The notes below the pieces were generated by a model that did not search any database, had not been told where the DNA came from, and saw only the letters and a list, made by a program, of their open reading frames with translations. Both the position numbers and the translations under genes were made by a program. Shown here in pieces: positions 1 through 16,704 of a stretch of 17,225 bases of DNA. Positions within the stretch are counted from its first letter, which is position 1; every line of letters begins with the position of its first letter. Source of the DNA: an uncultured archaeon (GTDB taxonomy: Archaea > Asgardarchaeota > Heimdallarchaeia > Heimdallarchaeales > Kariarchaeaceae); assembly GCA_964645535.1 (NCBI GenBank), contig CAZYCQ010000065.1, forward strand, positions 1-17,225, in the 5' to 3' direction.

Positions 1-1710
1 AAGGGCAAAGGCCAATATCAGCATTGCGGGGGAGTTGATGAGGGCAATGAATGGATTATCATCGAAAAACGTATTGTAGAATTGAGAAAATACGATCAGA
101 GTCAGTAGGAAGGATACAACAATGGGTATTCTTTTTCTTTGACTGGGAGAGAGATTAAGGAGTTTATTGATTTTTTCCAATGGTGAAGGAGCGGTTTCAT
201 TAATCACTACAGGAGTTTCTTTATGTTTTGACGTTGGGTTAGGGAAGATTATGGCGATCACAAAAGCCAGGAAGAAAATGATTTGGAACCACAAACGGTT
301 TTCCAATGGAACAAAAAGAGAGACAATCCAGTCAACAAATATCCAAGACATTGGAAATACACTGAGGAGAAGTATTTTCAATCCCCAATAATTCACGGCA
401 GGAGCATCCATTTTAAATCTTGGATCGAAAATCTTTTTCCAAGCCTCATGGAGAAGTTTTCCAAGCCTTATATGAAAGGTCTTTTTCCGGTATGGCGCCA
501 GAGCCAAAATTAGGAACGGCATTAGAAAAGGGGTATAGTATTTGTAGATTCCTCTACCGATGGTTCCATGAGCAAAGAAGTAATATAATGCGGCAAATCT
601 GAAGAAAAGATATGGACGTTCTTCCAAGATCCTGTATGCAGAGAACGCAAAATAGGATATAAGGAACAGTCCACCTACGAAGAGTATTTGAGTATCCACT
701 AGAATATGAAGGAAATTAGCAAGTCCGTAATCTTCTTGTGCAACTGCTGAAGATACAAGATTGGGAGCCACCCCTCCATTTTCCTGCAAGAATTCAAGTG
801 TTGGGACAGAAGAAGGCGCTCTTGATGCGAGGAATAATTTCACAATATATAGGTACGGTGTCAGAACAATATATGGCATAGAAAATATGAGAGACCAGAT
901 GATGAATTCAACCAAAAAGGCAAAACCTCTCAACCATCCATACCTACGTACCATCAACATAAGAGCAGGCATGGCGAAGAGCAATGGGAATTGCTTTGTC
1001 AAGAATCCCAAGGAAAGAATCACAAATCCCCATGAATCATGGTGTTCAAGATAGAACCAAAGATAGAGAACCGCGAAGAAGGTCATTTGAGGGGTGTTCA
1101 AACCATAAATATTTGCATAAAAGAGGGAGATAGGGGTAATGGTATGGAGGAAACCAAGGATAAGGGCAATTCCATTCCCCGTCACCCTTTTTGCAAGAAC
1201 ATAGACCAACACTGAGGTTAGTGAATCAAATATGACATTTGAAACCAAGACAGATTGTCTGGCATCAAGACCAAAGAATATTTTGCCTAGACTGATCCAC
1301 ACAATATAAAGTGGTCCGTAAACGTACCCACCCATCCTTTCAGGATGAAAGATGGCAGTCTGTTCTCCTTCATAAGGATTCCATCCTTGAGAAAAGTTGT
1401 CAACATAGGGAAGGTAATACCAGCTGAAATCAACATATCCTTCCACCACAATGGACTCTCCGGGTTTCCAACCGAAAAGAGATGTCAACCAGTACAATTC
1501 TTCATGAGTATTGATAAAACTGAATGAGGTATTATTGCCGACAACATCCAAGTAATAGCCAATGATGAAAAATTTCAGCCAATAGGAGATAGAAAAGATA
1601 AGAAGACAGAAAATCAGATCGGTCAATCTATCTTGATGTTCTTGTTTTTCAGGGACAGACTGTTCTGGAGTTTCGCGAACGAATTCTACAATTGCATTAA
1701 TAGCTGACAA
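1..1710 (-). CDS. Polytopic GT-C superfamily glycosyltransferase (GT87/DUF2029, PIG-M/PimE-like mannosyltransferase-type); 3' end truncated by the window edge
   Basis: Not in the ORF track because there is no stop in the window. Manual translation shows the frame is open from TTG at 1710 (in-frame TAG upstream at 1737-1735) through position 1, at least 570 codons. It has an N-terminal TM (DLIFCLLIFSISYWLKFFIIG), a loop EGYVDFSWYY...GWNPY...GGYVYGPLYIVW, then LGFLTKQFPLL and RGIYKYYTPFLMPF among many hydrophobic segments. These are typical GT-C/GT87 motifs. The start codon is uncertain. Confidence 0.8.
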   Translation of the reverse strand, partial: MSAINAIVEFVRETPEQSVPEKQEHQDRLTDLIFCLLIFSISYWLKFFIIGYYLDVVGNNTSFSFINTHEELYWLTSLFGWKPGESIVVEGYVDFSWYYLPYVDNFSQGWNPYEGEQTAIFHPERMGGYVYGPLYIVWISLGKIFFGLDARQSVLVSNVIFDSLTSVLVYVLAKRVTGNGIALILGFLHTITPISLFYANIYGLNTPQMTFFAVLYLWFYLEHHDSWGFVILSLGFLTKQFPLLFAMPALMLMVRRYGWLRGFAFLVEFIIWSLIFSMPYIVLTPYLYIVKLFLASRAPSSVPTLEFLQENGGVAPNLVSSAVAQEDYGLANFLHILVDTQILFVGGLFLISYFAFSAYRILEERPYLFFRFAALYYFFAHGTIGRGIYKYYTPFLMPFLILALAPYRKKTFHIRLGKLLHEAWKKIFDPRFKMDAPAVNYWGLKILLLSVFPMSWIFVDWIVSLFVPLENRLWFQIIFFLAFVIAIIFPNPTSKHKETPVVINETAPSPLEKINKLLNLSPSQRKRIPIVVSFLLTLIVFSQFYNTFFDDNPFIALINSPAMLILAFAL

Positions 1711-1791
1711 CTTAATTTCAGAAATTTTAATGCACTAAAAAAGAATTCCTCTGAAACACATGGATTTGATATTTCAAGAAGTTGAGGCAAC

Positions 1792-2655
1792 TCAATTTTC
1801 AGGGTTTGTCTTTTCTTTGTACCAGATGCGAATATTGTTTTCTTCGATATATTTGGTTGCTTTATTGTAGACTCTTGCAATTATCCATAGGAGGAGGAAG
1901 AGATATGGGATCTGGAGGAATTCATTATCTAAAACCCGGAGATACCGAGCTGCTTGACTCACCTTTTGTATTGAGTGATCCATTCTGTAGATAATTTTTT
2001 GGTTCTCGTCTCTTTTGATAATGTGGACAGCAGTTCTTTCTATAAGACCGGATTCAAAGTTGTTGGTATTCAGTTCTACATTGACAGTCAGATTTCTTAG
2101 TTGTCCATCTATTGATGCAAGTTGAATGAATTCAAAATTGAAATTCAGGAAAGTCTTCTCGCTTTCTAGGTTGAATCTACAACTGGATTGTTCGCAATAG
2201 ATGGCAGAAAGAAAATTGGTTTCAGTGTTGTTGAATGGATAGAGTTCAGGATTGACATTATCTCGCACCAAGAGAGGAATGGCGTCAAATTCTGTGGCCA
2301 AACGACCCTCTTGTGCAAAATAAAATATGAAATTTGCTCTTTTCAATGGTTGGCTCATTTTTTTCACATCCCCGTCAGTTCCTTCCTTAACGACATTAAG
2401 ATTGACAATGTTGCTTCCATATACAGGTTCAAAGCTTTCCAGAAAGAAGGTTTGCGTTGATTTGAATCTGAAATATTGCCCTCCATAAATTGAATATCCA
2501 GATCTGGTTTCTGTGAACACCCAACCTTTTGTTGTTATTGGATTCGAAACGATCATGCTCACAGGGACAATCACAAGCATCGTAATTAGAGCCAAATAAA
2601 AAAGCAAATTTGAGATTTTCATTACTTTTTGATTTCTCAAATCCGTTATAACCAT
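1792..2655 (-). CDS. Hypothetical membrane protein: N-terminal signal/TM, ~200-aa beta-rich extracytoplasmic domain, C-terminal TM
   Basis: 287-aa ORF with hydrophobic LLFYLALITMLVIVPVSMIV near the N terminus and FLQIPYLFLLLWIIARV near the C terminus. N-glycosylation sequons NNT and NLT. Starts 11 bp after the upstream gene's stop. The true start could be MKISNL at 2622. Confidence 0.75.
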   Translation of the reverse strand: MVITDLRNQKVMKISNLLFYLALITMLVIVPVSMIVSNPITTKGWVFTETRSGYSIYGGQYFRFKSTQTFFLESFEPVYGSNIVNLNVVKEGTDGDVKKMSQPLKRANFIFYFAQEGRLATEFDAIPLLVRDNVNPELYPFNNTETNFLSAIYCEQSSCRFNLESEKTFLNFNFEFIQLASIDGQLRNLTVNVELNTNNFESGLIERTAVHIIKRDENQKIIYRMDHSIQKVSQAARYLRVLDNEFLQIPYLFLLLWIIARVYNKATKYIEENNIRIWYKEKTNPEN

Positions 2656-2666
2656 TTAGTTGCAAT

Positions 2667-3275
2667 CTATAATGTTTCGGATGGAGTTGTTTTGAGGAGG
2701 GAGTAAACCTTTACAAATCGGTGTAGAGCAGTGATCGCGGTAAGAACCAAGAGAACTTGAACAATAACCACTACTGCTACTTCTCCGATAAGATAACCTA
2801 GGAAGCCTGCCATAAAGAGAAATGTCATTCTTTCAGCTCTTTCCATAATCCCGATTCCAGCAAGACTGACACCCAAACCTTCACCTCTTGCTCTAAGGTA
2901 CGAAACTGAGAATGCAGCAGCCAAGAGAGAAATGGCTGCAAGTTGATTTTTGACCTCAGTGAATCCTAGGACTAGACCAATATAGATCGCAGCTTCGCCA
3001 ATTCTGTCGGCAACAGAGTCTAAAAATGCACCATGGTTTGAAACCATCCCCCTGATTCTTGCAACACCTCCATCAAGAGTATCCATCAGACCACCAAGCA
3101 GGATTGCAAGGGCTGCTACCCCATAATCATGAGCATAAAATGCCCAGCCACCAATAATGCTAAAAGCCAAACCGATAGTGGTAATAAAGTTCGGAGTAAC
3201 ACCCAGTTTTGCGAGAAAAGCATACAACGGTTTCATCAGTTTAGTGAATGGGGCTCGGAATTGATTCAAAACCAT
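2667..3275 (-). CDS. pgsA: CDP-alcohol phosphatidyltransferase, archaetidylinositol-phosphate synthase / PIP synthase-like
   Basis: TPNFIT plus the signature DTLDGGVAR-x8-GAFLDSVADR (DxxDGxxAR...GxxxDxxxD). SYLRARGEGLG...GIMERAER resembles the inositol-phosphate-binding arginine motifs of the AIPS/PIPS subfamily. About 6 TMs, 202 aa. Confidence 0.88.
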   Translation of the reverse strand: MVLNQFRAPFTKLMKPLYAFLAKLGVTPNFITTIGLAFSIIGGWAFYAHDYGVAALAILLGGLMDTLDGGVARIRGMVSNHGAFLDSVADRIGEAAIYIGLVLGFTEVKNQLAAISLLAAAFSVSYLRARGEGLGVSLAGIGIMERAERMTFLFMAGFLGYLIGEVAVVVIVQVLLVLTAITALHRFVKVYSLLKTTPSETL

Positions 3276-3388: not shown

Positions 3389-6300
3389 TTACCATCGAGG
3401 CATTGCCCGATAGGAGCTCACCAAGGTTCCAAGTTCTTCTACGAGAATCGGATCCTGGGTGACAATGCCGTAAACATCCTTATTTGTCACTGGAAGGCCA
3501 ATAAGAACCTCTTCTCCATCACGTGTTGCGATGATCATTTTCAGGCTCTCAGCGCCAAAACCTTTAGGTTGGTATTTACGGAATTGGATGTTGTTATCTG
3601 ATTTCCGCATCTTTTCCATTACCTGTTGATCTTTGGGACTGTGGGCCGTGGGATCAGTGATGATAGTGACTGATTTTCTTCCATATTCTTCCCAAACCCT
3701 GCTGTCCACCCAATCAATGGTGGGGGTAACAATTGTTAGATTGGATTTGGTTCGCATGATCAGGGCATTGAGGTCTGATATCAGAGCTTCTTTGGTTGCA
3801 TCGATATAGGTGGTTTCAACCAACTTGGGATCAAAGGCTTGAGCACCTTCTGCAATCTGCCTAAGAAGGTTCATTGCCTTGCCTGCTGCATCCAAAGTTT
3901 CGTTGATTACCTCAGGTATCTTGGAAATGGTGGCGGATATTTCTTGCCTGTCTTTTTGGATTTCTGTCTCGATGCTTTTTGTCAACGAGGATTCAAACGT
4001 CTGAACATCAGTTTTTAGTTTGGAGGAGGTTTCATCCAATTTGGCCTTGACCTCGTCAATGTGTGATCTGAACCGATCGTTCATTGCACCCATATCCTTT
4101 CCTAGGCTTTCATCAACAATCTTCTCATAGGATGTTGTTTCATTGCGTAGATTTGTTTCAATTGTGCCCAAAGCAGATGCATTGCTCTCTGTAATTTCTG
4201 AAATCTTGCCCTGCAGATTGCCTGCTGTATTTGTCACATTGGTCTTGATTTGCTCGATTGCGTTGAGGACTAAGTTTTCAACAGTTCCTTGGACATTTGA
4301 AACTGCACCATTCACTTCAGTCTGAAGATCCATTATTTGTGAATTGACGAAGCTTTGGGTATTTTCTACAAAGGATACCAATTCGTCAATCTGTGAGTTA
4401 ATCATGTCTTGGAGTTGTTGCTTTGTCTCTTCATTGAAAGAACCGATGGAATCCTTGAAATTATTAAGTTTGGTCTCTAATTCCCCAACAAGTTGGGCTC
4501 TAATACCTTCAACACTGTCCACAAATTTGTTAAATTCGTCAAGCACGGCTTTGGTTGATTGCAAGATTGTTTCAACATTGGAAAGGGGTTCCTTGTATAT
4601 GTTTTCAACTGCTTTTGAAGCTTTGTCTGCTTCCTTCTTGGTTAAGTCTGCAAATTTCTTGTCCAAGCTTTCTGCTGACTTTTTGATCTGCAGGAGAGGT
4701 TTGCTCACATCATCATTCATAGTTTTTGCAGATGTATCAATGGCACTTTCAGCCTTTGAGAATGATTCCTTGAGGGAAGCGAGTGTGGACTGCAAATTGT
4801 CTTCCTGAACCTGTTTGGCGTTTTCCAATGTTGATGAAAGCCGGTCGTTGGTTTCTGCCTGAATTTTATCTAGATTGGAGTTGAAATCTTCGAACTTAGC
4901 AGAGATATCGGCAAGTCTTGCTTGGGTATCCTCCTTAAGATTTCCCGTCTCTGCTTGGACACCGGTTTCAATTTCCTCGATACGGGTCTGGACGGTCTTC
5001 TCAAGTGAATCAATGGTGACATCAGATTTACTTCTCAGTTCCTCCTTGGTTCGGGAGATCACATCATGAAGTGAATTTCCCATGTTCTCCGAAAAGTCTT
5101 CCATTACTTGCAACTGCTGTTGGAGGTTTTCCTTGTTTGTTTCAACAAGTTCGTTTTTCATCTCTCCTGCTTCATCAACAGAGGAAGTAACTTGAGTGTT
5201 GACCTTGGCATTGATTTCCTCGACGTTTTTCTTTACGTTATCAAGGAGAGAATCGTAGTCTTCTTTAAGAGCAGAAACCAATTCATCCTGTGATTTCAAA
5301 ACGATGTTTTCTTGGGAGTTGGCATCCACCCCTGTAGCGAGATATTGTGCCTTCCCTATTAAGGAGGAGACAGGACCAACGAACGTGGTTGACAATTCAT
5401 TCTTTATTTTGTCTTCCATTTCATTGAGCAATTCTTCACTAGATGACGATACGTTGGTCATAAAAGATGAATGTGAATTCCCTAAGTTTTGAGTGAGCGT
5501 ATCTATAGCTGCCTCAATCTTGGAGGTTTGGGAATAGACAAGGTTTTCAACCTTTTCAACTTCATCCTGAACTGTCTTTCCCAGTGATCTCAAAACGACA
5601 TTCTGTGTTTCTTCAGTATCTTGTGTTGCTTTAAGAAGCATATTTCCCAGATTTTGAGACATCCGTTCATAATCAGACTTGATTCTTCGATGTTCTTCCA
5701 GTTTTTGGATGACAAAATCCTTCTTTCCGAACATACCTTTGGTGTTGTCCTCCAATGCCTTTTCAAGATCCTTAAGGAGTTTTTCTGATTTGGATTTGTA
5801 CGATTCAAATTCTCTGATCAGGTTGCTTAACTGATCTGCATGGTCACTAAACATTGTCTCAATTTCTTGTGGAAGTTCTTCACGGATGGTTACAATATTC
5901 AGTTCAAAGTCCGATTTGAATTTAGATATGTCTTCCTTGCTTTTCTGTTTAAGATTTTCCATATCGGATTTGAAGGATTCAAGGCTTGTTGAGGCCACTT
6001 CCTTGAACTTGGAAAGGGATTGATCTTTAACCTCCCGTATTGTGTGTGAGAAAGAAGATATGAGTTTGTCCTTGGAACTGGTTGCATCAATCTGAAGCTT
6101 TTCAGCTTCGGAGTTGAACTGTTCAATCTGTTCTTTCTGCTTTTCTAGGATTTCATTTCTCTTTTCTTCGAATTGACTGAAGTCAGAGGCAATTGATTGC
6201 TCGAATTGCTGAACATCCGTGTTCAATGATTGGGTAAGTTCTTCTCTAAAGGAAGCAAGATATTTGGAAATGGCTTGATGGAAGTTTTCCAATTTTTCTT

Positions 6301-7822
6301 CAGCGCTTGCAGCCAATTGTTCCGCTTTTGATTTTGCATCATTTACAAATCCTTCCCGTTGCACGGTTGCTTCATTTTCGATGGATCCTAGGGTTGCATC
6401 AATATCTGTATTGATTTTATCCAAGGAGGCCTTCAATTCCTCTTTTGTTTCTACAAGAAATTGAGAGATGAATTTCTGCAAGGATGTAAGTTCAGAAGTA
6501 ATATGTTCTACCGATTTGGTCGAAGCATCTACCAATTGATCCCGGAATACAAGATTGTTTTGTTGGACTTCGTTGAACTTTTCTTTCAGATTCTCCTGCA
6601 TTTGGAGGTTGAGATCATCTAAATCCTTATCCAACGTGTTTTTGTTTTGTCGGAGACCTTCTTCGATTGTCTTATGTGCATTGTTCAATTCAGACTTGGT
6701 CTGATCAAGGATCTTGGTGAGACCTTCGACGGCAGATTTTTGGGTATCGTCGATTGCCTTGACCAAACCTTCCTTGATTGAATTGACTTGGTTTTGGATA
6801 GTTGATTGCAATCCCTTGACTGCATCCTGTGTTACAGAAATGGCTTGCTTTTCAGCATCTTGCATTCCTCTTTTGATGGTGTCAGAGGTTTCAGACAAGA
6901 TTGAAGCCGTTTCCTGATATTTTGACTTGATTTTGTCATGTGAGCTTTTGAATTCAGAATCGGTAGAAAGAAGATGATCTGCTGTAAAGGAATCCGAAGT
7001 GGATGAAATATGATTAGCAAGCTCCTCTATTTTGGATAGAGCTATATTTCTGTGTTCCTCAACTTGAGTTTTGTTTTGATCTGCTATTTGTCCAATTGCC
7101 TGATCAACAACAGTAACTCGTGCAGATACAGACATTCCCAGTTCATTTGCATAATCAACGATTTCTGTCTTTGTTTCCTTGGTGACTTGATCTAGAAGCT
7201 GATGATGTTCCGCAATGGCATTATTGAGATTTTGCAGAGTTGCCTCCTTTGTTGCAGAGAGTTCATTGATTTCCCGGTTGATTGCATCTGCCACATTTTG
7301 GATTGGAGGGATGATTGCTGCCTTGACATTCTTGCCTAGATTAGATGACAGTTCCTCCATCGATTCCTTTTCAGAGTCTGCCAGTTTATCGAAAACTTCT
7401 TTCTGAGAGGCCGTGACATGATCAATGTCTGACGCAAATTTCGTGACTGCTTCGGATTTGGCTTGTTGAAACTCATCCTTGAATTGGAGGAGCTGTGTTT
7501 CTCCATTTTTCCAAATATCATTGACCTTATTCCCAATCTCCCCTAACCTAGTCGCGAGTCGGTTGCTCACATCAGCTCCAAGAACAATTTTTGGCGCCTC
7601 TGGGATGTAGATTCTTGATTCTTCACCTTTTATTGCAATGGATTTTACGTATCCTTTTTCTTCAAGTACTTTCAAGGCATTGGTTACTTCATCCAATGAA
7701 TGACCATCCAGGTAGGCGGTCACTTGTCCAGGCGTTCTGAAGCCAAACCCCACCAAGATTTCATAAGTCTTGGCCTCAAGCTCTGAGAAACCCAATGCTT
7801 GCAAGTCATTTCCGAGACTCAT
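3389..7822 (-). CDS. Giant TrmB-family protein: N-terminal TrmB-like winged HTH, ~1250-aa hendecad (apolipoprotein-like) helical region, C-terminal inactive PLD-fold (TrmB/TrmBL2 effector-type) domain
   Basis: aa 1-78 LQALGFSELEAKTYEILV...EVTNALKVLEEKGYV...IYIPEAP match the TrmB wHTH pattern. aa ~80-1330 are acidic and helical with 4-4-3 hydrophobic spacing. The C terminus LNALIMRTKSNLTIVTP...VTIITD...KMIIATRDGEEVLIG...GIVTQDPILVEEL follows a PLD-like fold with a degenerate HxKxxxxD motif. Strong SD GGAGGT upstream. Confidence 0.85.
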   Translation of the reverse strand: MSLGNDLQALGFSELEAKTYEILVGFGFRTPGQVTAYLDGHSLDEVTNALKVLEEKGYVKSIAIKGEESRIYIPEAPKIVLGADVSNRLATRLGEIGNKVNDIWKNGETQLLQFKDEFQQAKSEAVTKFASDIDHVTASQKEVFDKLADSEKESMEELSSNLGKNVKAAIIPPIQNVADAINREINELSATKEATLQNLNNAIAEHHQLLDQVTKETKTEIVDYANELGMSVSARVTVVDQAIGQIADQNKTQVEEHRNIALSKIEELANHISSTSDSFTADHLLSTDSEFKSSHDKIKSKYQETASILSETSDTIKRGMQDAEKQAISVTQDAVKGLQSTIQNQVNSIKEGLVKAIDDTQKSAVEGLTKILDQTKSELNNAHKTIEEGLRQNKNTLDKDLDDLNLQMQENLKEKFNEVQQNNLVFRDQLVDASTKSVEHITSELTSLQKFISQFLVETKEELKASLDKINTDIDATLGSIENEATVQREGFVNDAKSKAEQLAASAEEKLENFHQAISKYLASFREELTQSLNTDVQQFEQSIASDFSQFEEKRNEILEKQKEQIEQFNSEAEKLQIDATSSKDKLISSFSHTIREVKDQSLSKFKEVASTSLESFKSDMENLKQKSKEDISKFKSDFELNIVTIREELPQEIETMFSDHADQLSNLIREFESYKSKSEKLLKDLEKALEDNTKGMFGKKDFVIQKLEEHRRIKSDYERMSQNLGNMLLKATQDTEETQNVVLRSLGKTVQDEVEKVENLVYSQTSKIEAAIDTLTQNLGNSHSSFMTNVSSSSEELLNEMEDKIKNELSTTFVGPVSSLIGKAQYLATGVDANSQENIVLKSQDELVSALKEDYDSLLDNVKKNVEEINAKVNTQVTSSVDEAGEMKNELVETNKENLQQQLQVMEDFSENMGNSLHDVISRTKEELRSKSDVTIDSLEKTVQTRIEEIETGVQAETGNLKEDTQARLADISAKFEDFNSNLDKIQAETNDRLSSTLENAKQVQEDNLQSTLASLKESFSKAESAIDTSAKTMNDDVSKPLLQIKKSAESLDKKFADLTKKEADKASKAVENIYKEPLSNVETILQSTKAVLDEFNKFVDSVEGIRAQLVGELETKLNNFKDSIGSFNEETKQQLQDMINSQIDELVSFVENTQSFVNSQIMDLQTEVNGAVSNVQGTVENLVLNAIEQIKTNVTNTAGNLQGKISEITESNASALGTIETNLRNETTSYEKIVDESLGKDMGAMNDRFRSHIDEVKAKLDETSSKLKTDVQTFESSLTKSIETEIQKDRQEISATISKIPEVINETLDAAGKAMNLLRQIAEGAQAFDPKLVETTYIDATKEALISDLNALIMRTKSNLTIVTPTIDWVDSRVWEEYGRKSVTIITDPTAHSPKDQQVMEKMRKSDNNIQFRKYQPKGFGAESLKMIIATRDGEEVLIGLPVTNKDVYGIVTQDPILVEELGTLVSSYRAMPRW

Positions 7823-7824
7823 GG

Positions 7825-9138
7825 TTATACCTCCTTGGTTTCCTTGAGAATGGATTTAATCATCTCATCAACAGCCTTTTCAGCTTCCTTGAAGGATGAG
7901 GATGTTTCCTTTTCTGTCTGATCCACAAGACTTTTCACAGTTTCCTTGCCTTCTGAAGTCAAATTCCTTGCATTCTTGGATCCAGTAATGATGGCGGTCT
8001 TAGTGGCATCATTTAGGGATTGTGTGGTGGAAACGGTCTTTTCATTGAATTTGCTCAACTCTTGGATCATTAGATTCCTGTTTGATTCTCCTAGTTTTTC
8101 AAGCTCTGTTCGGAGAGTTGCAAAGGAATCGATAACTTCCTTTCTTGCTTCGCCAACTTGTGTGTCCATGAAATCCAAGGATCCCATGACTCTTTTCTTC
8201 TGTTCTTCGTTGAGATTGGATATTTCCTTCATCAAATCCTGCTTCAGCTGATTCAATGAACCTCTTAATTCCCCTATTGCAGATTTGGTCTTTTCTTGGT
8301 GTTTTTCAATGAGCAACGTCATTTGTTTGTTGTATGTATCTACAATGGCGGTCACTGTTTTCTCCATCTGTTCCTCAAATTCAAGGATGGTATCTTGAAG
8401 TTCACCCACTTCCTTTGTGAAATGGGCATCGATTTCAGTATGCAGTCTTTCCAAATTGGATTTCAGATGGCTTAAGGTATCTGTAATGATGCTGTCCAGG
8501 ACTTCCTTGGTTTGAACAACTCCCTTAAAGACATCTTCGACCTTCCCTCCGATCTGATTTTGGAAGTCATTCTTAAGAAGGTTGAGGGATTCACTCAGTG
8601 TTTCCTGATTGATTTGGAGGATCTGTTTCAGTTCTGTTGAAACCGTTCCATCTTTCTCTGCAACTAGATCAATTGATTGGTTCATGGTCTGTGTAGCCAA
8701 TTCATTGATTCTTTCGTCATACTTTCCAACATCCTCGAGATGGGCATTGACACTATCCTTAACATTTGAAAGGCTGGTATCCAATTGTAGTGCTATTTTC
8801 TGTTCAACATCATCCAGTGTTTGACGTCCGTACTCTTCCATGCTGGAAATATTTGAACTGATGTCTTCCTGTAAGCCTTTGACAGTTCCATCAACTTCAT
8901 TTTTGAATGAATTCAGATTGTTTTCGACTTCATCCTCTAGATTTTTGTTGACGGTTTCGATTTGTTTGGCAGTGTTTTCTAAATTCTCACCAGTTTTCCT
9001 TTCCAAATTTTCCAGTGAATTCTGGATGTTTTTCTTGGCAGTGGCCAACCTAGCATGGACGTCGTTTTTCGTTTTTGTAACTGATGAGTTTATGTTTTTC
9101 AGCTTTTCAATGTATTTGGTATTTCCCTGTTCGCTCAT
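7825..9138 (-). CDS. All-helical hendecad / apolipoprotein-like repeat protein
   Basis: 437 aa with no Pro, Cys or Trp. Clear 11-residue 4-4-3 hydrophobic periodicity, e.g. LEDEVENNLNSFKNEVDGTVKGLQEDISSNISSM. Lies 9 bp after the ATPase stop (TGAGGGattcaaATG). Confidence 0.85.
   Translation of the reverse strand: MSEQGNTKYIEKLKNINSSVTKTKNDVHARLATAKKNIQNSLENLERKTGENLENTAKQIETVNKNLEDEVENNLNSFKNEVDGTVKGLQEDISSNISSMEEYGRQTLDDVEQKIALQLDTSLSNVKDSVNAHLEDVGKYDERINELATQTMNQSIDLVAEKDGTVSTELKQILQINQETLSESLNLLKNDFQNQIGGKVEDVFKGVVQTKEVLDSIITDTLSHLKSNLERLHTEIDAHFTKEVGELQDTILEFEEQMEKTVTAIVDTYNKQMTLLIEKHQEKTKSAIGELRGSLNQLKQDLMKEISNLNEEQKKRVMGSLDFMDTQVGEARKEVIDSFATLRTELEKLGESNRNLMIQELSKFNEKTVSTTQSLNDATKTAIITGSKNARNLTSEGKETVKSLVDQTEKETSSSFKEAEKAVDEMIKSILKETKEV
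7829..7834 (-). promoter_or_regulatory. Shine-Dalgarno GGAGGT inside the 3' end of the 437-aa gene, suggesting translational coupling to the 1477-aa gene
   Basis: Minus strand: AAGGAGGTATAACCATG. The stop TAA and the start ATG are 2 bp apart. Confidence 0.7.
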
Positions 9139-9147
9139 TTGAATCCC

Positions 9148-10824
9148 TCATTGTATATTTAAGTTCTTGAAATACTTTTGATGCTGTGGATATTTAACAA
9201 AGGTGGTCACAGCTTGTTCTTGTATCTCTTTTACGGTGTTTTTTTGTCCTGCATGCATAAATGCATTGATGGCCTTAATGAATAATGACCGCATAGCATA
9301 ATGGAAAGTTTCCAAATCAATGTTTGAAATCTCCCTTCGATATCTTCTTCCTGCTTCTCGGTAATTCGCCTGAGATCTCCATCCGATTTTTGCCTTTTCA
9401 AAATAATATGCAGATTGCTCATAGGCGAGTGCAGAGAAATAATCAATTTGCTTTTCAGCAAACCCTTTTGCAAGTCTTTCGTAGAGGTCGCCCAATCGTT
9501 CATAATCACCGGTTTTCAAGAGCCCTGTTGCAGCAATATCGAGCAATTGGATAGTCAGATCCTTAAGTCCATTTTCCAAAGCCACTTCTGCGGTTTTCGC
9601 AAGCTCAGTGGAGAGTCGAAAGATTAGTAGGGGGTCTCGAACCCGTTTTACGTTGGCTGAAATGATTTCAATATCTTCTTTGAGGGGAAGCAATCCTTTG
9701 GTTGCCAATCGTTCAATTCGATTCAACAGTAAGAGAACTTCAGTTCTTGGGTCAATCGGGAGAAAAACGGAAGCGACCAATTCCCAAACCGAACGGGTGA
9801 TAAAGGCATAATAGTTTCCGCTTCGGGTAAGCATGAACCCTTGTACCAACCCATCAACTATTTCTTCTTCATGTTTTTTCAGGATTTCATTCCTTTCGAA
9901 AAGGTTGATGTCTTTCTTTGAAAGATCTTCCAGCAATTCAACCTCTTGTTCTGACAAACCCAAAGCCTTTGCAATGATCTCTGCATCTAGGACGCTTTGG
10001 TCATAACCCTTGCTTGCAAGAAATTGACGGAGGGCAAGATCGAAGGGAAGTCTCGTTGAAGCGCTCAGAACTTTTTCCCGTTCATTCTTGATCAATTTCC
10101 CTCGTCGACGGATCATCAAGTCAGCATCAGTGAAGTCAAAATTTGAGATTTCGAGGTGGAGAACCTTTGATTCCTCTTCCATTTTCTGGAGATCTAGGTG
10201 CTGATTAATTGAGTTGTGACCCGCAGTCAGGAAAAAAATATTCAGATTGCGTTTTGTGGTTTCTTCAAAGATGGTTCTCAATATTTCAAAGACACTGATG
10301 AATTCGTAATTCATAACTCGATCCAAATCATCAATAAAGACACCAATAAATTTTCGATCCTCTTTCAATTTAAGGTCTGCACGGTCAATCCTTAAGAAGA
10401 ATGCATCAATGAACTCCTTGAGAGTCTGTTCATCGATGGTTTCTCCAATTGCCCGTTGCAATATTTGATCCGGGATTTCTCCAATCGTCAATCCTCGTTT
10501 GCGTTCAATGAAGTTTCTCCATTCAGGGGAAAGAAAATTGATCTGTTCCTTGATGCCGTTGAAGAAGTTCTTCAACCCTTCAGGAGCAATGGGCATCTCT
10601 ATGCTGAAGGTCAGGATATCCTGAGATAAGGCAATATCTTTGAGTTTATTCATCAGCGAGGTTTTCCCAGCCCCAGCAACACCGGAAATGTGAACCCATT
10701 TCATGACCGGTTGATCATTGATTAGATCTTTGATCCATTGGTAGAACGCGTCGATCTGTTCAGTTCTTCCGACGAAATCGATTGGATTTATCGGGTTGAT
10801 GATTTCTTCCATTGAGACTTCCAT
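9148..10824 (-). CDS. STAND-class P-loop NTPase (AAA_16-like) with helical and winged-helix domains and C-terminal TPR/SNAP-like repeats
   Basis: FVGRTEQI pre-P-loop motif, Walker A GVAGAGKT (aa 48-55), Walker B IGVFIDDLD, sensor-1-like FFLTAGH, NFDFTDADLMI, GxP-like ASTRLPFDL, WHD-like LSEQEVELLEDLS...LVQGFML...YYAF. The C-terminal ~170 aa form TPR-like helical repeats. The start may be the second Met at 10812. Confidence 0.8.
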   Translation of the reverse strand: MEVSMEEIINPINPIDFVGRTEQIDAFYQWIKDLINDQPVMKWVHISGVAGAGKTSLMNKLKDIALSQDILTFSIEMPIAPEGLKNFFNGIKEQINFLSPEWRNFIERKRGLTIGEIPDQILQRAIGETIDEQTLKEFIDAFFLRIDRADLKLKEDRKFIGVFIDDLDRVMNYEFISVFEILRTIFEETTKRNLNIFFLTAGHNSINQHLDLQKMEEESKVLHLEISNFDFTDADLMIRRRGKLIKNEREKVLSASTRLPFDLALRQFLASKGYDQSVLDAEIIAKALGLSEQEVELLEDLSKKDINLFERNEILKKHEEEIVDGLVQGFMLTRSGNYYAFITRSVWELVASVFLPIDPRTEVLLLLNRIERLATKGLLPLKEDIEIISANVKRVRDPLLIFRLSTELAKTAEVALENGLKDLTIQLLDIAATGLLKTGDYERLGDLYERLAKGFAEKQIDYFSALAYEQSAYYFEKAKIGWRSQANYREAGRRYRREISNIDLETFHYAMRSLFIKAINAFMHAGQKNTVKEIQEQAVTTFVKYPQHQKYFKNLNIQ

Positions 10825-10880
10825 CTTTGAATCTACCTTTTCAACCTTCTTTGAAGTACATGATTATTTGGACGTCCTCC

Positions 10881-10886
10881 TTTAAA
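10881..10886 (-). promoter_or_regulatory. Putative internal TATA box (TTTAAA) upstream of the STAND ATPase / helical-protein genes
   Basis: Minus strand caattaataaTTTAAAggagg, in the only sizeable gap (113 bp) within the five-gene block. Confidence 0.35.
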
Positions 10887-10937
10887 TTATTAATTGTTGA
10901 AATCTACCCAAATAGAAGATTGTTTGAAGAGAGTGGC

Positions 10938-13121
10938 TCAGAAAGAGATACTGAGGTTGTCTCGGACTCCTGCAAGTGGATAGTTGGGATCGATTTTCAG
11001 AATTGCTTTTTCTGCAATCTGTACCAGACTTGGATGCGGATTGCCTTCCAAAATCGACACCATCCGTCCCAAGTCATCTGGTGTGCCACATTGACCGAGC
11101 GCCCAAAAGGCAGCCTTTCTGACTTCAACGTCCTCGTCTCCTAACGCATCAAGCAGAGTCCATCTTGCATCATTGGTGCCTTTTAATCCTAGACCAATCA
11201 AGATACCGCTTTTCAACCCTCGTGATATTTCTGGTTCCTTGAATAGCGAAATGAGATCTTCTTCTTCCAATAACCCTATTTTAGTTGCCAGTATAACAAC
11301 TCCTGATGCCACCTGATCGTGTGGATGGTGAATGAGATTTCTGAAGCATTCTGCGAACTGTGAAGAATCGGTTCGCTCCACATACCTGAAGGTTGCGAAC
11401 CGACCAAACTGCCCCAGTCCCTGAGCAAATTCTGTTTCAGGTTCCTTTATGTCAGCAGGCCAAATTGTCATGGCAAGAGGTAGAAAGAAGGGGGCATATG
11501 ACCAATGAAAACTTACCTGAGATGCCGATTTTGTCCAAATGTAGATGTTCCAAAGAAGAAGCAAGAGTACCATGAAGTTAAGCCATTTCCTCCAAGATTT
11601 AGAAAAGAAGAAACCATTTCGCATGGAATTTGCCCAAAAATATGAAAATATGGTCAATGCCATTCCCGGCATGAGAACAAAGAAAATCACAAATCGGATC
11701 TGATTGACCAAGTCCAATCTTTCAAGCTGTCGATACGTTGCGGCAATGAAAAGGAGGTAAACATATCCAAACCCCATCACGACAGCTATTCTTTTTGGAA
11801 GAAGATACCAAGGTTCACTAGCTTCCAAAAAATCAATGTCTGCCTTGACATTGAGGGGAAATATATCATTGAGGTTCTTTGGATCATCCATCAATCCACT
11901 TGCGACCAACATCATGGATTCAGGTGTAGGAGGTTCAAGTAACCGGAAAACAAAAGGCAGGACAAATCTCAATACCACAAGTGCGATAATATAGCCAAAT
12001 ATCAATGAGAATGAACTTGTGGTGCTTACAAAGGCAGAAAATATGATATCAATAACAATGAATGCTAAAAGAACAACAGCCAACCCTCTTTTTTGTAACC
12101 TAACGTCTGCAATTAATTTTCTCAATATAGGAAGTGTTTCATTGTAACCTAAAACAACTGTAGGAACGGCAAGAACAATCAATGCGATTCTAAGGAAGGT
12201 GAAAAATGTACTGACTTGGGAACTGAAGTTGGAAGAAATTTGGATAAAAAGAAGTTCTTCCTGAAGACGTTGCAAGAATTCCAAAAAAATCCGCTGAAAC
12301 ATAGATCCTGTGGTTAGAAGGTTCAAAAGCACTGCAAAGAGGGCAGAAGCCCAGAAGTTTCTGGTTCTCCACCATATAATTCCTGATATCAATCCCCAAA
12401 AGAAAAATCGCAGGAAAATGTAAATCAGAACATCCCAATCATTGGGAAGAAGAAAGATATTGGAAAATGTAATTGCCTGAATTAAAGCAGAGGCAATAAC
12501 TGCAGTTCCCATCCCCACTTTGGCAACTCTTGAAAAGTTTGCAATCAGTCCTCTCAACAGATACTCCACCCCAACATAAAGCAAGGCAAAACTAATCAAA
12601 AGAAGGTTCTTTTCAGTATTTGCCGTTTGATCTGGACTGATTAAAGTGTAGATATAGGTCTGATAGAAATCAGGGGAAGTTGGAACACTTTGTGATTTGA
12701 ATATTACTTCTTCTCCCCTTGTAGTGACCATAACGGTACTCAAAATCAAAATGAGGAAGAAGTAGACCCCCAGACCAAGGAAGACGTAAAGCAAGGTGAA
12801 GTTCTTCCCCTTTCTCCCTGTCAGGGGAGAAAGATTCATGTTCATGGATCTTACATAGTATTCTGAAATGAAAATCAACAGCAATGGGATAAGTATGGAC
12901 ATGGAAAGATACATGTTCAAAACAAATTGTAATTGATCGATCTGATCTAATGTGGTCAATGAACCATATTTTCCTGTCAGACCTCCAATGAATTGATTCC
13001 CAAAAAATACACCAATGATAAGAGAACCGATATATGCAGGAAAGTAGACTGAATAGAACAAGTTCAGGTAACGAGGTCCAATGACTTGATCTATTTTGAT
13101 TTGAGTGGTATTGTCAGACAT
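10938..13121 (-). CDS. Polytopic membrane protein with a degenerate CPBP (Abi/CAAX protease) domain and C-terminal HEAT repeats
   Basis: More than a dozen hydrophobic segments. CPBP-like pattern GVEYLLRGLI...ASALIQAITFS...FFWGLISGIIWWRTRNFWASALFAVLLN. C-terminal HEAT/PBS-lyase repeats LLDALGDEDVEVRKAAFWALGQCG and ILEGNPHPSLVQIAEKAILKI. Starts 1 bp after the upstream stop, with GAGGAGG SD. Confidence 0.8.
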   Translation of the reverse strand: MSDNTTQIKIDQVIGPRYLNLFYSVYFPAYIGSLIIGVFFGNQFIGGLTGKYGSLTTLDQIDQLQFVLNMYLSMSILIPLLLIFISEYYVRSMNMNLSPLTGRKGKNFTLLYVFLGLGVYFFLILILSTVMVTTRGEEVIFKSQSVPTSPDFYQTYIYTLISPDQTANTEKNLLLISFALLYVGVEYLLRGLIANFSRVAKVGMGTAVIASALIQAITFSNIFLLPNDWDVLIYIFLRFFFWGLISGIIWWRTRNFWASALFAVLLNLLTTGSMFQRIFLEFLQRLQEELLFIQISSNFSSQVSTFFTFLRIALIVLAVPTVVLGYNETLPILRKLIADVRLQKRGLAVVLLAFIVIDIIFSAFVSTTSSFSLIFGYIIALVVLRFVLPFVFRLLEPPTPESMMLVASGLMDDPKNLNDIFPLNVKADIDFLEASEPWYLLPKRIAVVMGFGYVYLLFIAATYRQLERLDLVNQIRFVIFFVLMPGMALTIFSYFWANSMRNGFFFSKSWRKWLNFMVLLLLLWNIYIWTKSASQVSFHWSYAPFFLPLAMTIWPADIKEPETEFAQGLGQFGRFATFRYVERTDSSQFAECFRNLIHHPHDQVASGVVILATKIGLLEEEDLISLFKEPEISRGLKSGILIGLGLKGTNDARWTLLDALGDEDVEVRKAAFWALGQCGTPDDLGRMVSILEGNPHPSLVQIAEKAILKIDPNYPLAGVRDNLSISF

Positions 13122-13122
13122 G

Positions 13123-14949
13123 TCAGGTCTCCTCCTCTATTGTCAAAATGGCATCAACTCGTGATTTTTGCAGTTTTCGCATTAGCCTGAATCTCCTGTA
13201 GGCAATTCTAGCCAGATAAACGATAACAATAATGATAAACAGGTCTATAGATACCCGAAGACGGATATTTCTTCCGACATGGATTGTCCCTGAAAATGTG
13301 TTGTCATCCTCATTGATTTCAGTGACTTCATTTTCGACATCAACATCTATGGAAAGGGTGAGATTCCTTTGATTGTATCTCAAGAAAGTCCGGTAGGTGT
13401 AAACCAATGTTTCATTGACAGGAAGGAAGTCCAATTCATCTTGGATGACGATTTCATCATCCAGTTTCACTTCCAATTTGAAGGCGGAAGCAGGCAGGGA
13501 TCCATTGTTGACGATTCTGACTTCCAAAAGCAGGGAGGAGAATTCTTCTGCCGGATCTGGAAAGATATCGATTGATTGGATTGCAAGATTGGTGAACCTG
13601 TACCAAGTGGCAGTGATTCCAGTAACATTCCTATAAAGGGTCTGTTGATTAAGTGGAAGAAGAACAAAGGCCATGCTTGGAGCCATCCAGTGTAATGATC
13701 TTCCAGGTGATACTGAAAGGCCATATAATGAATCATTTGCGACAACAATGCTTGGGGAAAATTTGGTTGGAATTGAAACGGAGTCATATGTCTCGAGCTT
13801 CCAAACTTCACGATTCGCGATAATGAATCCATCCTGTGTATATTCAGCAACGGTAAAGTTGGTATTTGGTTGAAGAATGGCAAAAGAGGCAGAAAGACCT
13901 GGGATAATAGCAAATAATTCTCCTGCCCGCATTTCAGGAGCTTCAATCATCTGAACCATCGATGATTTTGTCAAGCCTGCATATTGGTGTACAAAATGTA
14001 AATTCACATCAATTTCAGATCTGCGGGAAGTGATTCCCACTAAGTCTGCTGAAAGAGAAAACTTGGTTGGGCCAAAAATCGAAACAGTCCTTACCGCACC
14101 GTTAACATATGTCAGATTGATTTCCGTTGGCGAGGAAGGAATGACTTCCACATAGGAAAGGTCTGTTTCGTCTTCGGGAGTCACATACAATTGTTGAGGA
14201 ATAATGTATTTCATTCCCCGCAGATATCGAGGGATACCCAATGTTGCCTTGTAGCCATTTTCATCATCCGGTGAGAAGAATGTGACGGTTGTTGCCTTGG
14301 TGGTATTGATATAGGTGCCTTTTGCTATGGGGAAGGTTTGGGGATCAAAGGGTTGGAATATCATTCCCTGTTTGGTCGATCCATTGGGAAATCTAAAGTT
14401 GACTTCTGTCAGTTGATCTTCTGTAAACACAGTTACATATCCATCAAAAGGAGCCCGATATTCATATCCCCTCATCCGATCTGGTAAAACCGTATATGCA
14501 AAGGATTTGTCGTTTTCAACGTCTTGTGTCAATCTGTGAACGACAACTTGTGCGGGAGCAGTTAAACGGATAAGAGAACCATTGGTCAATCCAGGACTTG
14601 AACTGGGATCAAAGATTACAGTAGTTGGTGAATTGAAGACCCTTTGATTGACCCCTGACTCATCCATTGCAAAGGATGTCAACATTAAACTAGGTTGAAT
14701 AAGAGTCACAGAAACAGAAGCCAGTCCATCTTTGTGAGTTTCATCGAAAATGAGAGGAATGTAATAGTCAAAGAACAAGAAACCTCCACCACCACCGCCG
14801 CCACCACCGTTACCACTGGGTGGAGCGGGGTCTCCCTCAGAAGATGAACCAAATGTATAAACTATGTTTGCACGAATGGATATGAGAATTAGGACAACTA
14901 AAACAATGAATTTCCACCGGTTGATGATGTGCCTATGCATGTAATACAT
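13123..14949 (-). CDS. Membrane-anchored surface protein: signal/TM, Pro/Gly linker, beta-rich (IgGFc-binding-like) region, CARDB domain, C-terminal TM and basic tail
   Basis: N-terminal RWKFIVLVVLILISI. CARDB pattern NLAIQSIDIFP...VRIVNNGSLPASAFKLEVKLD...LPVNET...IDVDVENEVTEINEDDNT. C-terminal TM IDLFIIIVIVYLA followed by RIAYRRFRLMRK. Ten N-X-S/T sequons counted. The IgGFc-like call rests only on weak motifs (VLPDRMRGYEY, IPRYLRGMKYII). Confidence 0.8.
   Translation of the reverse strand: MYYMHRHIINRWKFIVLVVLILISIRANIVYTFGSSSEGDPAPPSGNGGGGGGGGGFLFFDYYIPLIFDETHKDGLASVSVTLIQPSLMLTSFAMDESGVNQRVFNSPTTVIFDPSSSPGLTNGSLIRLTAPAQVVVHRLTQDVENDKSFAYTVLPDRMRGYEYRAPFDGYVTVFTEDQLTEVNFRFPNGSTKQGMIFQPFDPQTFPIAKGTYINTTKATTVTFFSPDDENGYKATLGIPRYLRGMKYIIPQQLYVTPEDETDLSYVEVIPSSPTEINLTYVNGAVRTVSIFGPTKFSLSADLVGITSRRSEIDVNLHFVHQYAGLTKSSMVQMIEAPEMRAGELFAIIPGLSASFAILQPNTNFTVAEYTQDGFIIANREVWKLETYDSVSIPTKFSPSIVVANDSLYGLSVSPGRSLHWMAPSMAFVLLPLNQQTLYRNVTGITATWYRFTNLAIQSIDIFPDPAEEFSSLLLEVRIVNNGSLPASAFKLEVKLDDEIVIQDELDFLPVNETLVYTYRTFLRYNQRNLTLSIDVDVENEVTEINEDDNTFSGTIHVGRNIRLRVSIDLFIIIVIVYLARIAYRRFRLMRKLQKSRVDAILTIEEET
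14782..14808 (-). repeat. GGN trinucleotide run encoding a 9-Gly linker in the CARDB protein
   Basis: Minus strand GGT GGT GGC GGC GGT GGT GGT GGA GGT, following PAPPSGN. Confidence 0.8.
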
Positions 14950-15009: not shown

Positions 15010-15624
15010 TCAGATAGAGTTCATTTTGTGCTTGTCGCAGACGGGAATTTGGTGTTCAATTAGTTCTTGACCAATTTGTACCTGCATTTTCACCAACGTT
15101 TTGGTTGCCTTGGCACATGTTGTGCATTTCAATGGCTCATAAGTAAAATCATACCGACGTTTCGCTCTTGCAAACTTGGATTTAAGCACTTTAATTGCAG
15201 CATTCCATTCATCAGTAATCTTTGACCCAACAGGATCATCCTTGGGCCTGATTCCAGTCCGAGCGGTAAGAGAGTACCAAAGAATTAAGTCCAATAGCTT
15301 GATTATCTTGCTTGTTGGAACAAGATGCAGTCCATCAACAATGATCAGAAGGTGGGAATCGTCAGCACTCATTTGGACATTCAGGTATTGGCCTCTACGT
15401 GATTTGGTAAGATATTTTTCAGTTATACGTGAAAATGCCTTTTTCAATTGCGATTGGAGAGAAATAAGCAGCTCAGGTTTCTTCAGATCTTTGACATGAT
15501 GTTTGATGACAAGTCTTGTTTCATTTTCCACTGAAAGGATTGATTTTCGGTTCACTAGGTTGAACAATCGTACACAATACTTGACAATTGAAGATGAATA
15601 ATGAAGGAGAATGCTCATTCTCAA
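15010..15624 (-). CDS. Basic hypothetical protein with a C-terminal CxxC...CxxH zinc-binding motif
   Basis: ORF fills the space between the thioesterase and CARDB genes. It is Lys/Arg-rich, with CTTC and CDKH near the C terminus. The start is uncertain and could be GTG at 15531 (VENETR). Confidence 0.65.
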   Translation of the reverse strand: MRMSILLHYSSSIVKYCVRLFNLVNRKSILSVENETRLVIKHHVKDLKKPELLISLQSQLKKAFSRITEKYLTKSRRGQYLNVQMSADDSHLLIIVDGLHLVPTSKIIKLLDLILWYSLTARTGIRPKDDPVGSKITDEWNAAIKVLKSKFARAKRRYDFTYEPLKCTTCAKATKTLVKMQVQIGQELIEHQIPVCDKHKMNSI

Positions 15625-15667: not shown

Positions 15668-16141
15668 TTAAAAGTGAAGGTTTTCAATGTTCTCTACGGG
15701 AACGAATAAATCGGCGGTTAGAGGATTTTCAGTTCTAAGCATATCACTGAGACATTTTGCAGCCAATTTACCGTCATCTCTGATGAGCTCGCATTCGATA
15801 TTGATGAGCCTTCTTCCTCTACGGATCACTTTGGATTTGGCAAGTATCTTTTCCCCCAGTTCAACAGGGCGAAAGAAACGAACGTCCAAACTTACTGAAG
15901 CAAAGAAGTTTGTTTCACCTAAAGAGAAAATTGTCAGACCCATCAAGTCGTCCATCATTGCTGATGCAATGCCTCCATGCAAGGTTCCATTTAGGTTAAG
16001 CATTTCTTCCGTTACTTGGAATTGACAGGTAACACTTCCTTCACGAACCTCAAGAAGCTTGCTGACCAACCAGTGATTGATCCTAGAATTCTTCTTGGTT
16101 ATGAATTTACCAATCCATTCCTGCAATCTTACGGATTCCAT
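15668..16141 (-). CDS. PaaI-family (hotdog-fold) acyl-CoA thioesterase
   Basis: Signature MLNLNGTLHGGIASAMMDD, then SVSLDVRFFRPV and VIRRGRRL. 157 aa. Confidence 0.92.
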   Translation of the reverse strand: MESVRLQEWIGKFITKKNSRINHWLVSKLLEVREGSVTCQFQVTEEMLNLNGTLHGGIASAMMDDLMGLTIFSLGETNFFASVSLDVRFFRPVELGEKILAKSKVIRRGRRLINIECELIRDDGKLAAKCLSDMLRTENPLTADLFVPVENIENLHF

Positions 16142-16215
16142 ACCGGATTATGCAAAATCAAGATAAAAAATCGATGGGTTTAACCCCCTCAAGGTTGTTG
16201 ATCATATGAATTTGG

Positions 16216-16704
16216 ATGGTAGATCCTTCAGATTTGGATTGGAATATACTCAATTGGTCAGAAGCGCAGCATAACATAGTTGAATTCCTGCACAAAAACG
16301 GTTTCATGTCCTTTCATGAACGACCTGTTGTTGGAGGAAGGGCGGACGGCTATGTCATCAAAAAATCTGAAGAATCTATCACAAAAATGATTGTGGAAGT
16401 GAAGCACTACAAGAAGATAACCGATACCACAGTCCGTAACGCAATAAAGCAGGGTCTAAACTATTTGGAAACCATTATTCAAGAGGACAAGAAGTTCAGG
16501 GATCGATCTTCCAAAGACTTCAGATATGTGTTGCTTGTGGTTTTTTCAAAGGATTACCCGGTGAAGTTGATGAATGTAGAGATGTTGGGTAATTCTACAA
16601 GCTATCCAATAGAAATTATTTATTGTTCTGTAAAGAATCTTAGGGAAACTCTTCAGAAACATAGGTTAATCGATATCCAAATGGGACTGGAAGATTTCTT
16701 TTAG
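16216..16704 (+). CDS. Small PD-(D/E)XK nuclease (RecB/NucS-like QxxxY) with a C-terminal PCNA-interacting PIP box
   Basis: HE35RP..GRAD44G, IVE61VK63, Q79GLNY83. Ends in QMGLEDFF-stop (QxxLxxFF). Its stop overlaps the convergent thioesterase stop (TTAG, 16701-16704). Confidence 0.8.
   Translation: MVDPSDLDWNILNWSEAQHNIVEFLHKNGFMSFHERPVVGGRADGYVIKKSEESITKMIVEVKHYKKITDTTVRNAIKQGLNYLETIIQEDKKFRDRSSKDFRYVLLVVFSKDYPVKLMNVEMLGNSTSYPIEIIYCSVKNLRETLQKHRLIDIQMGLEDFF

Follow-up and report, generated by a model that had tools for sequence, protein, structure and literature searches.

The stretch of DNA analysed here (hereafter the window) is the whole 17,225-nt contig C65 of genome G000, an uncultured archaeon of the Kariarchaeaceae (Asgardarchaeota), and carries five co-oriented genes that a first-pass annotation had taken for a single system reaching from the cell surface to DNA. 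From synteny and phylogenetic profiles we conclude, with a probability of roughly 0.9, that the five genes are instead two unrelated units lying side by side. Module A, a pair of genes for a CARDB surface protein and its CPBP-type membrane/HEAT partner, represents the tail, here detached, of a MoxR AAA+/DUF58 envelope-assembly operon. Module B, which encodes a STAND (signal transduction ATPases with numerous domains) NTPase, a helical protein of 437 amino acids (aa) and a TrmB-derived rod, is a real and undescribed three-gene unit. The five genes are not one system because the pair belongs to an operon confined to one order and the triplet has a promoter-like box of its own; the triplet we read, with a probability of about 0.4, as a nucleotide-switched coiled-coil strut.

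We compared the window with 251 Asgard genomes, 38 from its Heimdallarchaeial order and 213 from outside it (families, genomes and loci are labelled f1–f28, G0xx and L0xx, and the window's genus is g1). The full operon to which the pair belongs runs MoxR (AAA_3), a 720-aa membrane protein (F26), a 230-aa protein (F27), a 530-aa protein (F17), DUF58/vWA, CARDB and CPBP/HEAT, as seen in all six f2 loci spanning it as well as in G010, G013 and G016. In most relatives showing both (f1, f2, f4), CARDB follows DUF58 at −4 to +6 bp, and the CPBP/HEAT gene is coupled to it in every case. The linkage proposed across positions 10825–10937 fails in f2 and in G007: in f2 the intact operon is followed by genes other than the triplet, the two standing about 330 kb apart in the complete genome G015 (operon at 1.51 Mb, triplet at 1.18 Mb), and in G007, where the pair is detached from the MoxR-DUF58 operon, a rhomboid gene precedes the ATPase and the CARDB gene is reached only ~16 kb downstream of the triplet. 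In G010 (80% complete) the gene after the seven is an unrelated one of 509 aa, and searches turned up no ATPase and no rod. In genus g1 the first five operon genes have moved to another locus, which leaves the pair detached; those of G000 (MoxR, a 718-aa membrane protein, 245 aa, 530 aa and DUF58) occupy C4:78210-84595 (L091:6210-12595), and those of G003 lie ~48 kb away.

The phylogenetic profiles also set the two modules apart, the pair being restricted to the order and the triplet reaching 12 families. The CARDB gene is present in 35/38 genomes of the order and the F17 gene in 38/38, and both are found in 0/213 of the Asgard genomes outside it. That the pair is confined to the order rests mainly on these two profiles, because single-protein and seven-sequence CPBP searches overlooked family f2, whose diverged CPBP gene sits behind CARDB. 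By comparison, each of the 38 genomes of the order has a single full-length ATPase orthologue, as do 27 genomes spread over eight other families, in which the pair was not found. Within the order the ATPase, middle and rod genes adjoin in that sequence, mostly with gaps below 35 bp, wherever the available DNA allows this to be seen, with the sole exception of G021, which is perhaps mis-assembled. The triplet recurs in f8, f11, f14, f19, f21, f22 and one Hermodarchaeota contig; in f5 the rod lies elsewhere and the ATPase stands with a middle gene of ~718 aa, and in f28 (L057:8023-13292, probably Helarchaeales) a 1123-aa TrmB-rod comes directly after the ATPase with no middle gene between them; the middle gene may have arisen from a headless rod. 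A quick ATPase tree recovers each family as monophyletic and the neighbours are of housekeeping type (such as dnaK-dnaJ and map): the triplet is single-copy, vertically inherited and housekeeping. A scan of 1.84 billion representatives returned ~30 full-length ATPase clusters, the named ones from Freya-, Hod-, Hel- and Hermodarchaeota. Relatives of the window's ATPase at ~40% identity carry the labels Kariarchaeaceae or Heimdallarchaeota, in keeping with a Heimdallarchaeial host. Searches of f6, f7, f10 (60 genomes), f13 (55) and f16 (19) yielded no ATPase orthologue. Weak matches of 511–571 aa from other families turned out to be unrelated ATPase/TPR proteins without rod neighbours and were set aside.

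The two modules are laid out in the window as follows.

13123–14949 (−): CARDB gene, 608 aa; module A, gene 6 of the MoxR-DUF58 operon
10938–13121 (−): pseudo-CPBP/HEAT gene, 727 aa; module A, gene 7 of the MoxR-DUF58 operon
10881–10886 (−): TATA-like box TTTAAA in the 113-bp gap, 62 nt upstream of the ATPase start
9148–10824 (−): STAND NTPase gene, 558 aa; module B, gene 1
7825–9138 (−): hendecad helix gene, 437 aa; module B, gene 2
3389–7822 (−): TrmB-derived rod gene, 1477 aa; module B, gene 3
7592–7822 (−): winged helix-turn-helix (wHTH) head of the rod, aa 1–77; TrmB fold, Tyr50 equivalent absent
5723–5746 (−): rod hairpin tip loop, aa 693–700; basic-aromatic motif of the type K-x-x-(L/V/M)-F-G-K
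3392–3916 (−): C-terminal PLD-like domain of the rod, TrmB type, aa ~1303–1477

The coordinates bear out the arrangement first described, a coupled pair and a coupled triplet with gaps of 1, 113, 9 and 2 bp (CARDB, CPBP, ATPase, 437-aa protein, rod). Shine–Dalgarno-like sequences, reported from the upstream stop regions, are indeed present at or around the stops preceding the CPBP (GAGGAGG), 437-aa (GAGGGA) and rod (AGGAGGT) genes, and the signal is weak before the ATPase. Where the pair precedes the ATPase, the gap between them measures 84–423 bp. The TATA-like element in the window's gap is conserved in the sister species, and TTTAWA occurs at −44 to −65 in 27/56 ATPase loci against 5.5 in shuffles (maximum 13 in 500), a count inflated by related loci; the box at 10881–10886 is probably the triplet's own promoter. 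Matches to terminators were found only at chance level. The outside-to-inside succession of products, noted at first, arises from two operons placed side by side.

The largest product of the triplet is the rod, whose head matches TrmB (3qph, E 1.3e-12) and TrmBL2 (5bpd, E 3e-7) and which has the TrmB/TrmBL2 layout of wHTH, dimer helix and PLD-like domain. Between the two end domains stretches a helix with a hydrophobic period of 3.67, the same as in the 437-aa protein, and 85–90% of windows across orthologues peak at 3.62–3.72, in agreement with the hendecad assignment made at the outset. The lengths of the two arms (469–803 aa from head to central motif, 472–779 aa from motif to PLD-like domain) co-vary with r=0.996 and a slope of 0.96 over 42 non-independent rods, the tip motif marks the arm midpoint in these 42, K701 is invariant, and an AlphaFold2 (AF2) model of aa 451–950 breaks the helix at 693–700 and again at 831–839 (predicted local distance difference test (pLDDT) 85, predicted template modelling score 0.35). 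Because the arm lengths co-vary and the model breaks the helix at the midpoint, the rod reads as a fold-back hendecad hairpin with ~610 residues per arm, or a predicted ~90 nm at the helical rise of 0.15 nm per residue. The best structural matches of the modelled fragment, to chemoreceptor, Rad50 and MukB hairpins, are weak (Foldseek). Within the order the head-proximal stretch always measures 313–314 residues, and rods differ in length only beyond it; such a fixed stalk suggests that it binds a register-matched partner. A head-to-tip antiparallel dimer centred mid-arm was considered for the rod and rejected, as the distance from head to patch is fixed while that from patch to tip varies. Nor is the tip generally where the rod is most basic: this holds for the window's protein and fails in most orthologues.

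Rods that end in the same PLD-like domain are present in 228/251 Asgard genomes, with 1–6 in each. G000 itself encodes two further TrmB-rod-PLD paralogues, of 907 aa (C30:7258-9981) and 677 aa (C36:24114-26147), which have no ATPase neighbours and lack Tyr50, and near whose midpoints the tip motif was not found; the gene on C36 lies upstream of ribosomal-protein-like genes, near EF-1alpha. In f16 (G050:C29, G079:C26, G094:C38 and others), where no ATPase orthologue was found, PLD-ended rods occupy open frames of ~1795 aa.

Whether the head touches DNA bears directly on the first-pass annotation, which had called it a DNA-binding-type HTH. The TrmB fold is upheld; the link to DNA is weakened and unproven because the equivalent of Tyr50, part of the Tyr50-Asp51 contact in the TrmB/TrmBL2 recognition helix, is absent from all 45 rods, compared with 5/5 stand-alone TrmBs of G000 that keep it (R/K-I/V-Y). 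Tyr50 matters for the binding of DNA by TrmB, TrmBL1 and TrmBL2, and MreA regulates genes with Ser at this site (PMC4158304). The recognition helix of the rods is neutral to acidic and the mean net charge of the wHTH is −0.8, yet no part of the rod is better conserved than the wHTH, in which 32–34/45 retain Arg29, Lys60 and Lys65. On balance we place DNA binding by the head at somewhat under even odds. At the other terminus the PLD-like domain keeps an R-D-x-E-E motif, but of HxKxxxxD only the Asp survives in 20 orthologues, His and Lys being gone, so that the motif of an active PLD or nuclease is missing; the domain is catalytically dead. The rod ends ~175 aa after the arm, without the second effector subdomain of TrmB proper (Gly320/Glu326). 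One orthologue gives a weak FilR1_middle match, the annotation of one rod homologue lists PF28217, and leads from the Atlas to Regulator_TrmB/PLDc_2 remain below 0.9.

The 437-aa middle protein contains no proline. Its N- and C-terminal halves co-vary in length (r=0.997 across orthologues of 425–773 aa), and no helix breaker is present at the centre. Because it grows symmetrically about that centre, the protein is either an antiparallel dimer (~65 nm) or a hairpin (~33 nm). An HHalign comparison with rod arm 1 gives a probability of 98.6 at 10% identity, which may reflect repeat bias, and we do not claim paralogy. At L002:1319-2648 (G001) the middle gene appears as two overlapping open reading frames (ORFs; 229 + 254 aa), the result of a frameshift or an assembly error.

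The first gene of the triplet encodes a STAND-class NTPase as judged from its AF2 model (pLDDT 89.8), in which a P-loop nucleotide-binding domain is followed by a helical domain, a winged helix and TPR/SNAP-like C-terminal repeats, and whose best Foldseek matches are the STAND-TPR protein 6mfv, 8bob, 2qen, ORC2 and Avs3. An effector domain is absent. The Walker A G-x-G-K is intact in 52/56 orthologues (G53 in 56/56 and K54 in 52/56, with Lys replaced by Arg in 4/56), and D165 of Walker B is found in 55/56; the adjacent position 166 is Asn in 26, Asp in 17, Pro in 6 and otherwise Ser or Cys, the window's protein having D-D. A nucleotide-binding switch would fit the ATPase better than a motor, given this variation at the second Walker B acid. 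For the same reason the earlier statement that it is the only active enzyme is now uncertain, although Walker A is kept and the CPBP and PLD folds have, as proposed, lost their catalytic residues. Between Walker A and B (aa 99–110) lies a conserved basic-aromatic insert, P-E-W-R-x-F, possibly a membrane- or partner-binding helix. A complex prediction for the ATPase with the 437-aa protein scored 0.01, which is evidence in neither direction.

The products of module A look quite different. The CARDB protein has an N-terminal hydrophobic helix, a Gly-rich linker, a domain of IgGFc-binding/DUF5719 fold (aa ~55–445), the CARDB domain (456–553; Pfam E 1.6e-9) and a C-terminal transmembrane helix, a layout that points to a type-I-like, adhesin-like surface protein. 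The large domain matches IgGFc_binding/DUF5719 clusters at a TM-score of 0.75–0.79 (Atlas structure), and one orthologue clears the Pfam IgGFc_binding cut-off. The glycosylated ectodomain proposed for it agrees with the two terminal helices and 10 N-x-S/T sequons, glycosylation itself being a prediction. Its partner is confirmed as a polytopic membrane protein, with ~11 hydrophobic helices and C-terminal HEAT repeats (HEAT_2, 638–706). CPBP/Rce1 proteases carry the motifs EExxxR, FxxxH and HxxxN; here motif 1 reads VEYLLRG, one Glu and the Arg are retained and both catalytic His are replaced in 7/7 aligned orthologues, so that the motif set of an active protease is missing and the domain is catalytically dead. 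Other Pfam matches in the window's proteins are a weak Rce1-like one (174–268), a weak AAA_16, apolipoprotein-type repeats and TrmB (7–65).

Outside the five genes, a 204-aa ORF (15010–15624, −) has no Pfam match, carries clustered Cys residues C-terminally and precedes the CARDB gene only in the window's genus (G001, G002, L097). At 15668–17192 two PaaI/4HBT-like thioesterase genes stand either side of an opposite-strand 162-aa PD-(D/E)XK-like ORF (Pfam E 0.003). Positions 1–3275 encode a CDP-alcohol phosphatidyltransferase, a 287-aa protein without assignment and a PMT_2-like glycosyltransferase; they lie downstream of the rod in G000, G001 and G002 only, and these genes are outside the system.

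How the triplet might work can be put as a series of steps. The rod folds back on itself, which brings the two end domains derived from TrmB together as a head, in keeping with the hairpin geometry, fixed stalk, variable distal spacer and conserved tip described above. By analogy with STAND biology, the NTPase would rest ADP-bound, sense a ligand or partner through its TPR repeats, exchange nucleotide and oligomerise with little hydrolysis; the oligomer and the 437-aa helix may then bundle or release the rods, giving a switchable ~90-nm strut with two different ends. The basic-aromatic tip, which we take to resemble MinD-type targeting helices, could dock on a membrane or partner, and the head may oligomerise as TrmBL2 does, holding DNA non-specifically at best. 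The outcome would be a spacer or tether from the envelope to the interior, independent of module A. An extension of this reading, in which the triplet is a switchable member of a pan-Asgard set of TrmB-derived, 70–120-nm hairpin struts tying the membrane (tip) to the nucleoid (head), we regard as unlikely.

Several observations weigh against this account of two units, one of them a switched strut. The pair precedes the ATPase in at least 10 genomes of f1, f3 and f4, and in g1 it stayed beside the triplet when the MoxR genes left; because f1+f3+f4 form one clade in the ATPase tree (SH-like approximate likelihood ratio test (SH-aLRT) 94), one gain or one loss explains the adjacency. In f5 the rod is unlinked from the ATPase and middle gene and possibly lost in three genomes. 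Most Asgard families carry rods without an ATPase orthologue, as do Lokiarchaeia in the genomes searched, and therefore rods can work without the switch. Finally, the proposed membrane role of the tip rests on a likeness to MinD-type helices, and in most rods the tip is not the most basic stretch.

Among the alternatives, a DNA-free protein or membrane scaffold, in which the pseudo-HTH head binds protein and the STAND protein controls hendecad rods that give membranes their shape or spacing or build a cytoskeleton-like lattice, is doubtful but fares best. The loss of Tyr50 in 45/45 rods and both G000 paralogues, the neutral to acidic recognition helix and wHTH charge, the apolipoprotein-type amphipathicity of the 11-residue repeats and the breadth of PLD-ended rods (228/251 genomes, 1–6 paralogues) all speak for it; the conservation of the wHTH with its three basic residues and the regulatory activity of MreA despite its Ser (PMC4158304) speak against it, as does a 437-aa protein that lacks apolipoprotein-like proline punctuation.

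A signal relay to transcription appears quite unlikely. It would make the rod a chemoreceptor-like device with the STAND protein docked at its tip and the TrmB head switching promoters, in effect a MalT-like switch divided among three genes. The rods do show the symmetric arm indels and the conserved tip of chemoreceptors (methyl-accepting chemotaxis proteins, MCPs) on which the analogy is based, and further points in its favour are weak Foldseek matches to MCP cytoplasmic domains, a STAND match to 8bob of the maltose system and TrmB ancestry. Yet Tyr50 and the second, sugar-binding subdomain are absent (nothing follows the PLD-like domain), there is no linkage to regulated metabolic genes, and the MCPsignal tip motif was not found on C65 although G000 has 14 true MCPs.

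Very unlikely is an antiviral role, in which a STAND sensor of Avs type would work with long hendecad tails of Zorya type. The fold does match Avs3, Avs4 and Avs5, and PADLOC reports ZorA-tail matches down to E 9e-20, but these cover helical tails only, at 49.5 bits against a cut-off of 190 and without a MotA/B domain. The triplet shows no nuclease or other effector, no ZorAB motor and no patchy, mobile distribution, and its single copy, vertical tree and stable housekeeping neighbourhoods fit poorly with defence; the triplet matches neither Avs nor Zorya systems, and the earlier view that this is not a metabolic or toxin-effector operon holds for the triplet. The five-gene surface-to-DNA apparatus, with CARDB and CPBP/HEAT signalling to or anchoring the STAND-rod unit, can draw on the adjacency in f1, f3 and f4 and its persistence in g1 but is largely refuted and the least credible of all, given that a single clade accounts for the adjacency, the modules are unlinked in f2 and G007, the pair occurs without the triplet in G010 (80% complete), the triplet occurs without the pair in eight families, and the gap before the ATPase holds a promoter-like box.

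Asgard archaea are the closest microbial relatives of eukaryotes. Their cells are unusually organised inside, and few of the proteins that set the distances between membrane, nucleoid and cytoplasm are known. One concrete candidate to express and image is the vertically inherited STAND switch with its ~90-nm hairpin rods, from a rod family present in 228/251 Asgard genomes; if the membrane-nucleoid strut proved true it would be an archaeal membrane-chromatin tether under an NLR-like switch, in the lineages nearest eukaryotes. Follow-up work should exclude the CARDB/CPBP pair and treat DNA binding by the rod as a question, not a premise.

The novelty lies in the three-gene set and its architecture; the individual folds are known, and the claim of an undescribed system survives for the conserved triplet and falls for the five-gene set, which is not a real unit. 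We found no published description of the triplet in the literature searched; a 2023 hendecad survey (J Struct Biol) may mention these rods. Module A shares MoxR AAA_3 and DUF58/vWA together with membrane and surface proteins with the MoxR-proper/DUF58/vWA operons (Bat-type; bifidobacterial PFNA, PMC8430577); its operon differs from them in the presence of the order-specific F26, F27, F17, IgGFc-CARDB and pseudo-CPBP/HEAT, the last two detached in g1. With Zorya ZorA the rods share a long amphipathic helical tail, but they lack the MotA/ExbB membrane domain and ZorB/C/D. With SMC, Rad50, MukB and MCP hairpins they share a long antiparallel fold-back arm that joins the termini, symmetric indels and weak Foldseek matches; they differ in having an 11- rather than 7-residue repeat and no ABC head, hinge, zinc hook or MCPsignal. 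Pfam and NCBIfam gave no match to a split ABC head with hinge or hook, the termini being wHTH and PLD-like, and at a TM-score of ~0.2 the likeness is an analogy only. The NTPase has the FxGR, Walker A, helical domain with P-F turn, winged helix and TPR-like repeats of STAND NTPases with TPR sensors (6mfv; 8bob; the archaeal ATPases 2qen and 2fna; Avs3/4/5), and departs from them in a chain without effector or HTH, a variable second Walker B acid, the Walker A K-to-R change in 4/56 and fixed hendecad-rod partners. Closest to the rod are TrmB and TrmBL2 of Thermococcales (5bpd, 5box, 5bqt, 3qph), with which it shares the N-terminal wHTH, the amphipathic helix that follows and the PLD-like domain and, as in TrmBL2, the lack of a sugar-binding barrel or second effector subdomain; relative to these, it adds a fold-back hendecad insert of ~1230 residues, loses Tyr50 and sits with a STAND NTPase and a second rod.

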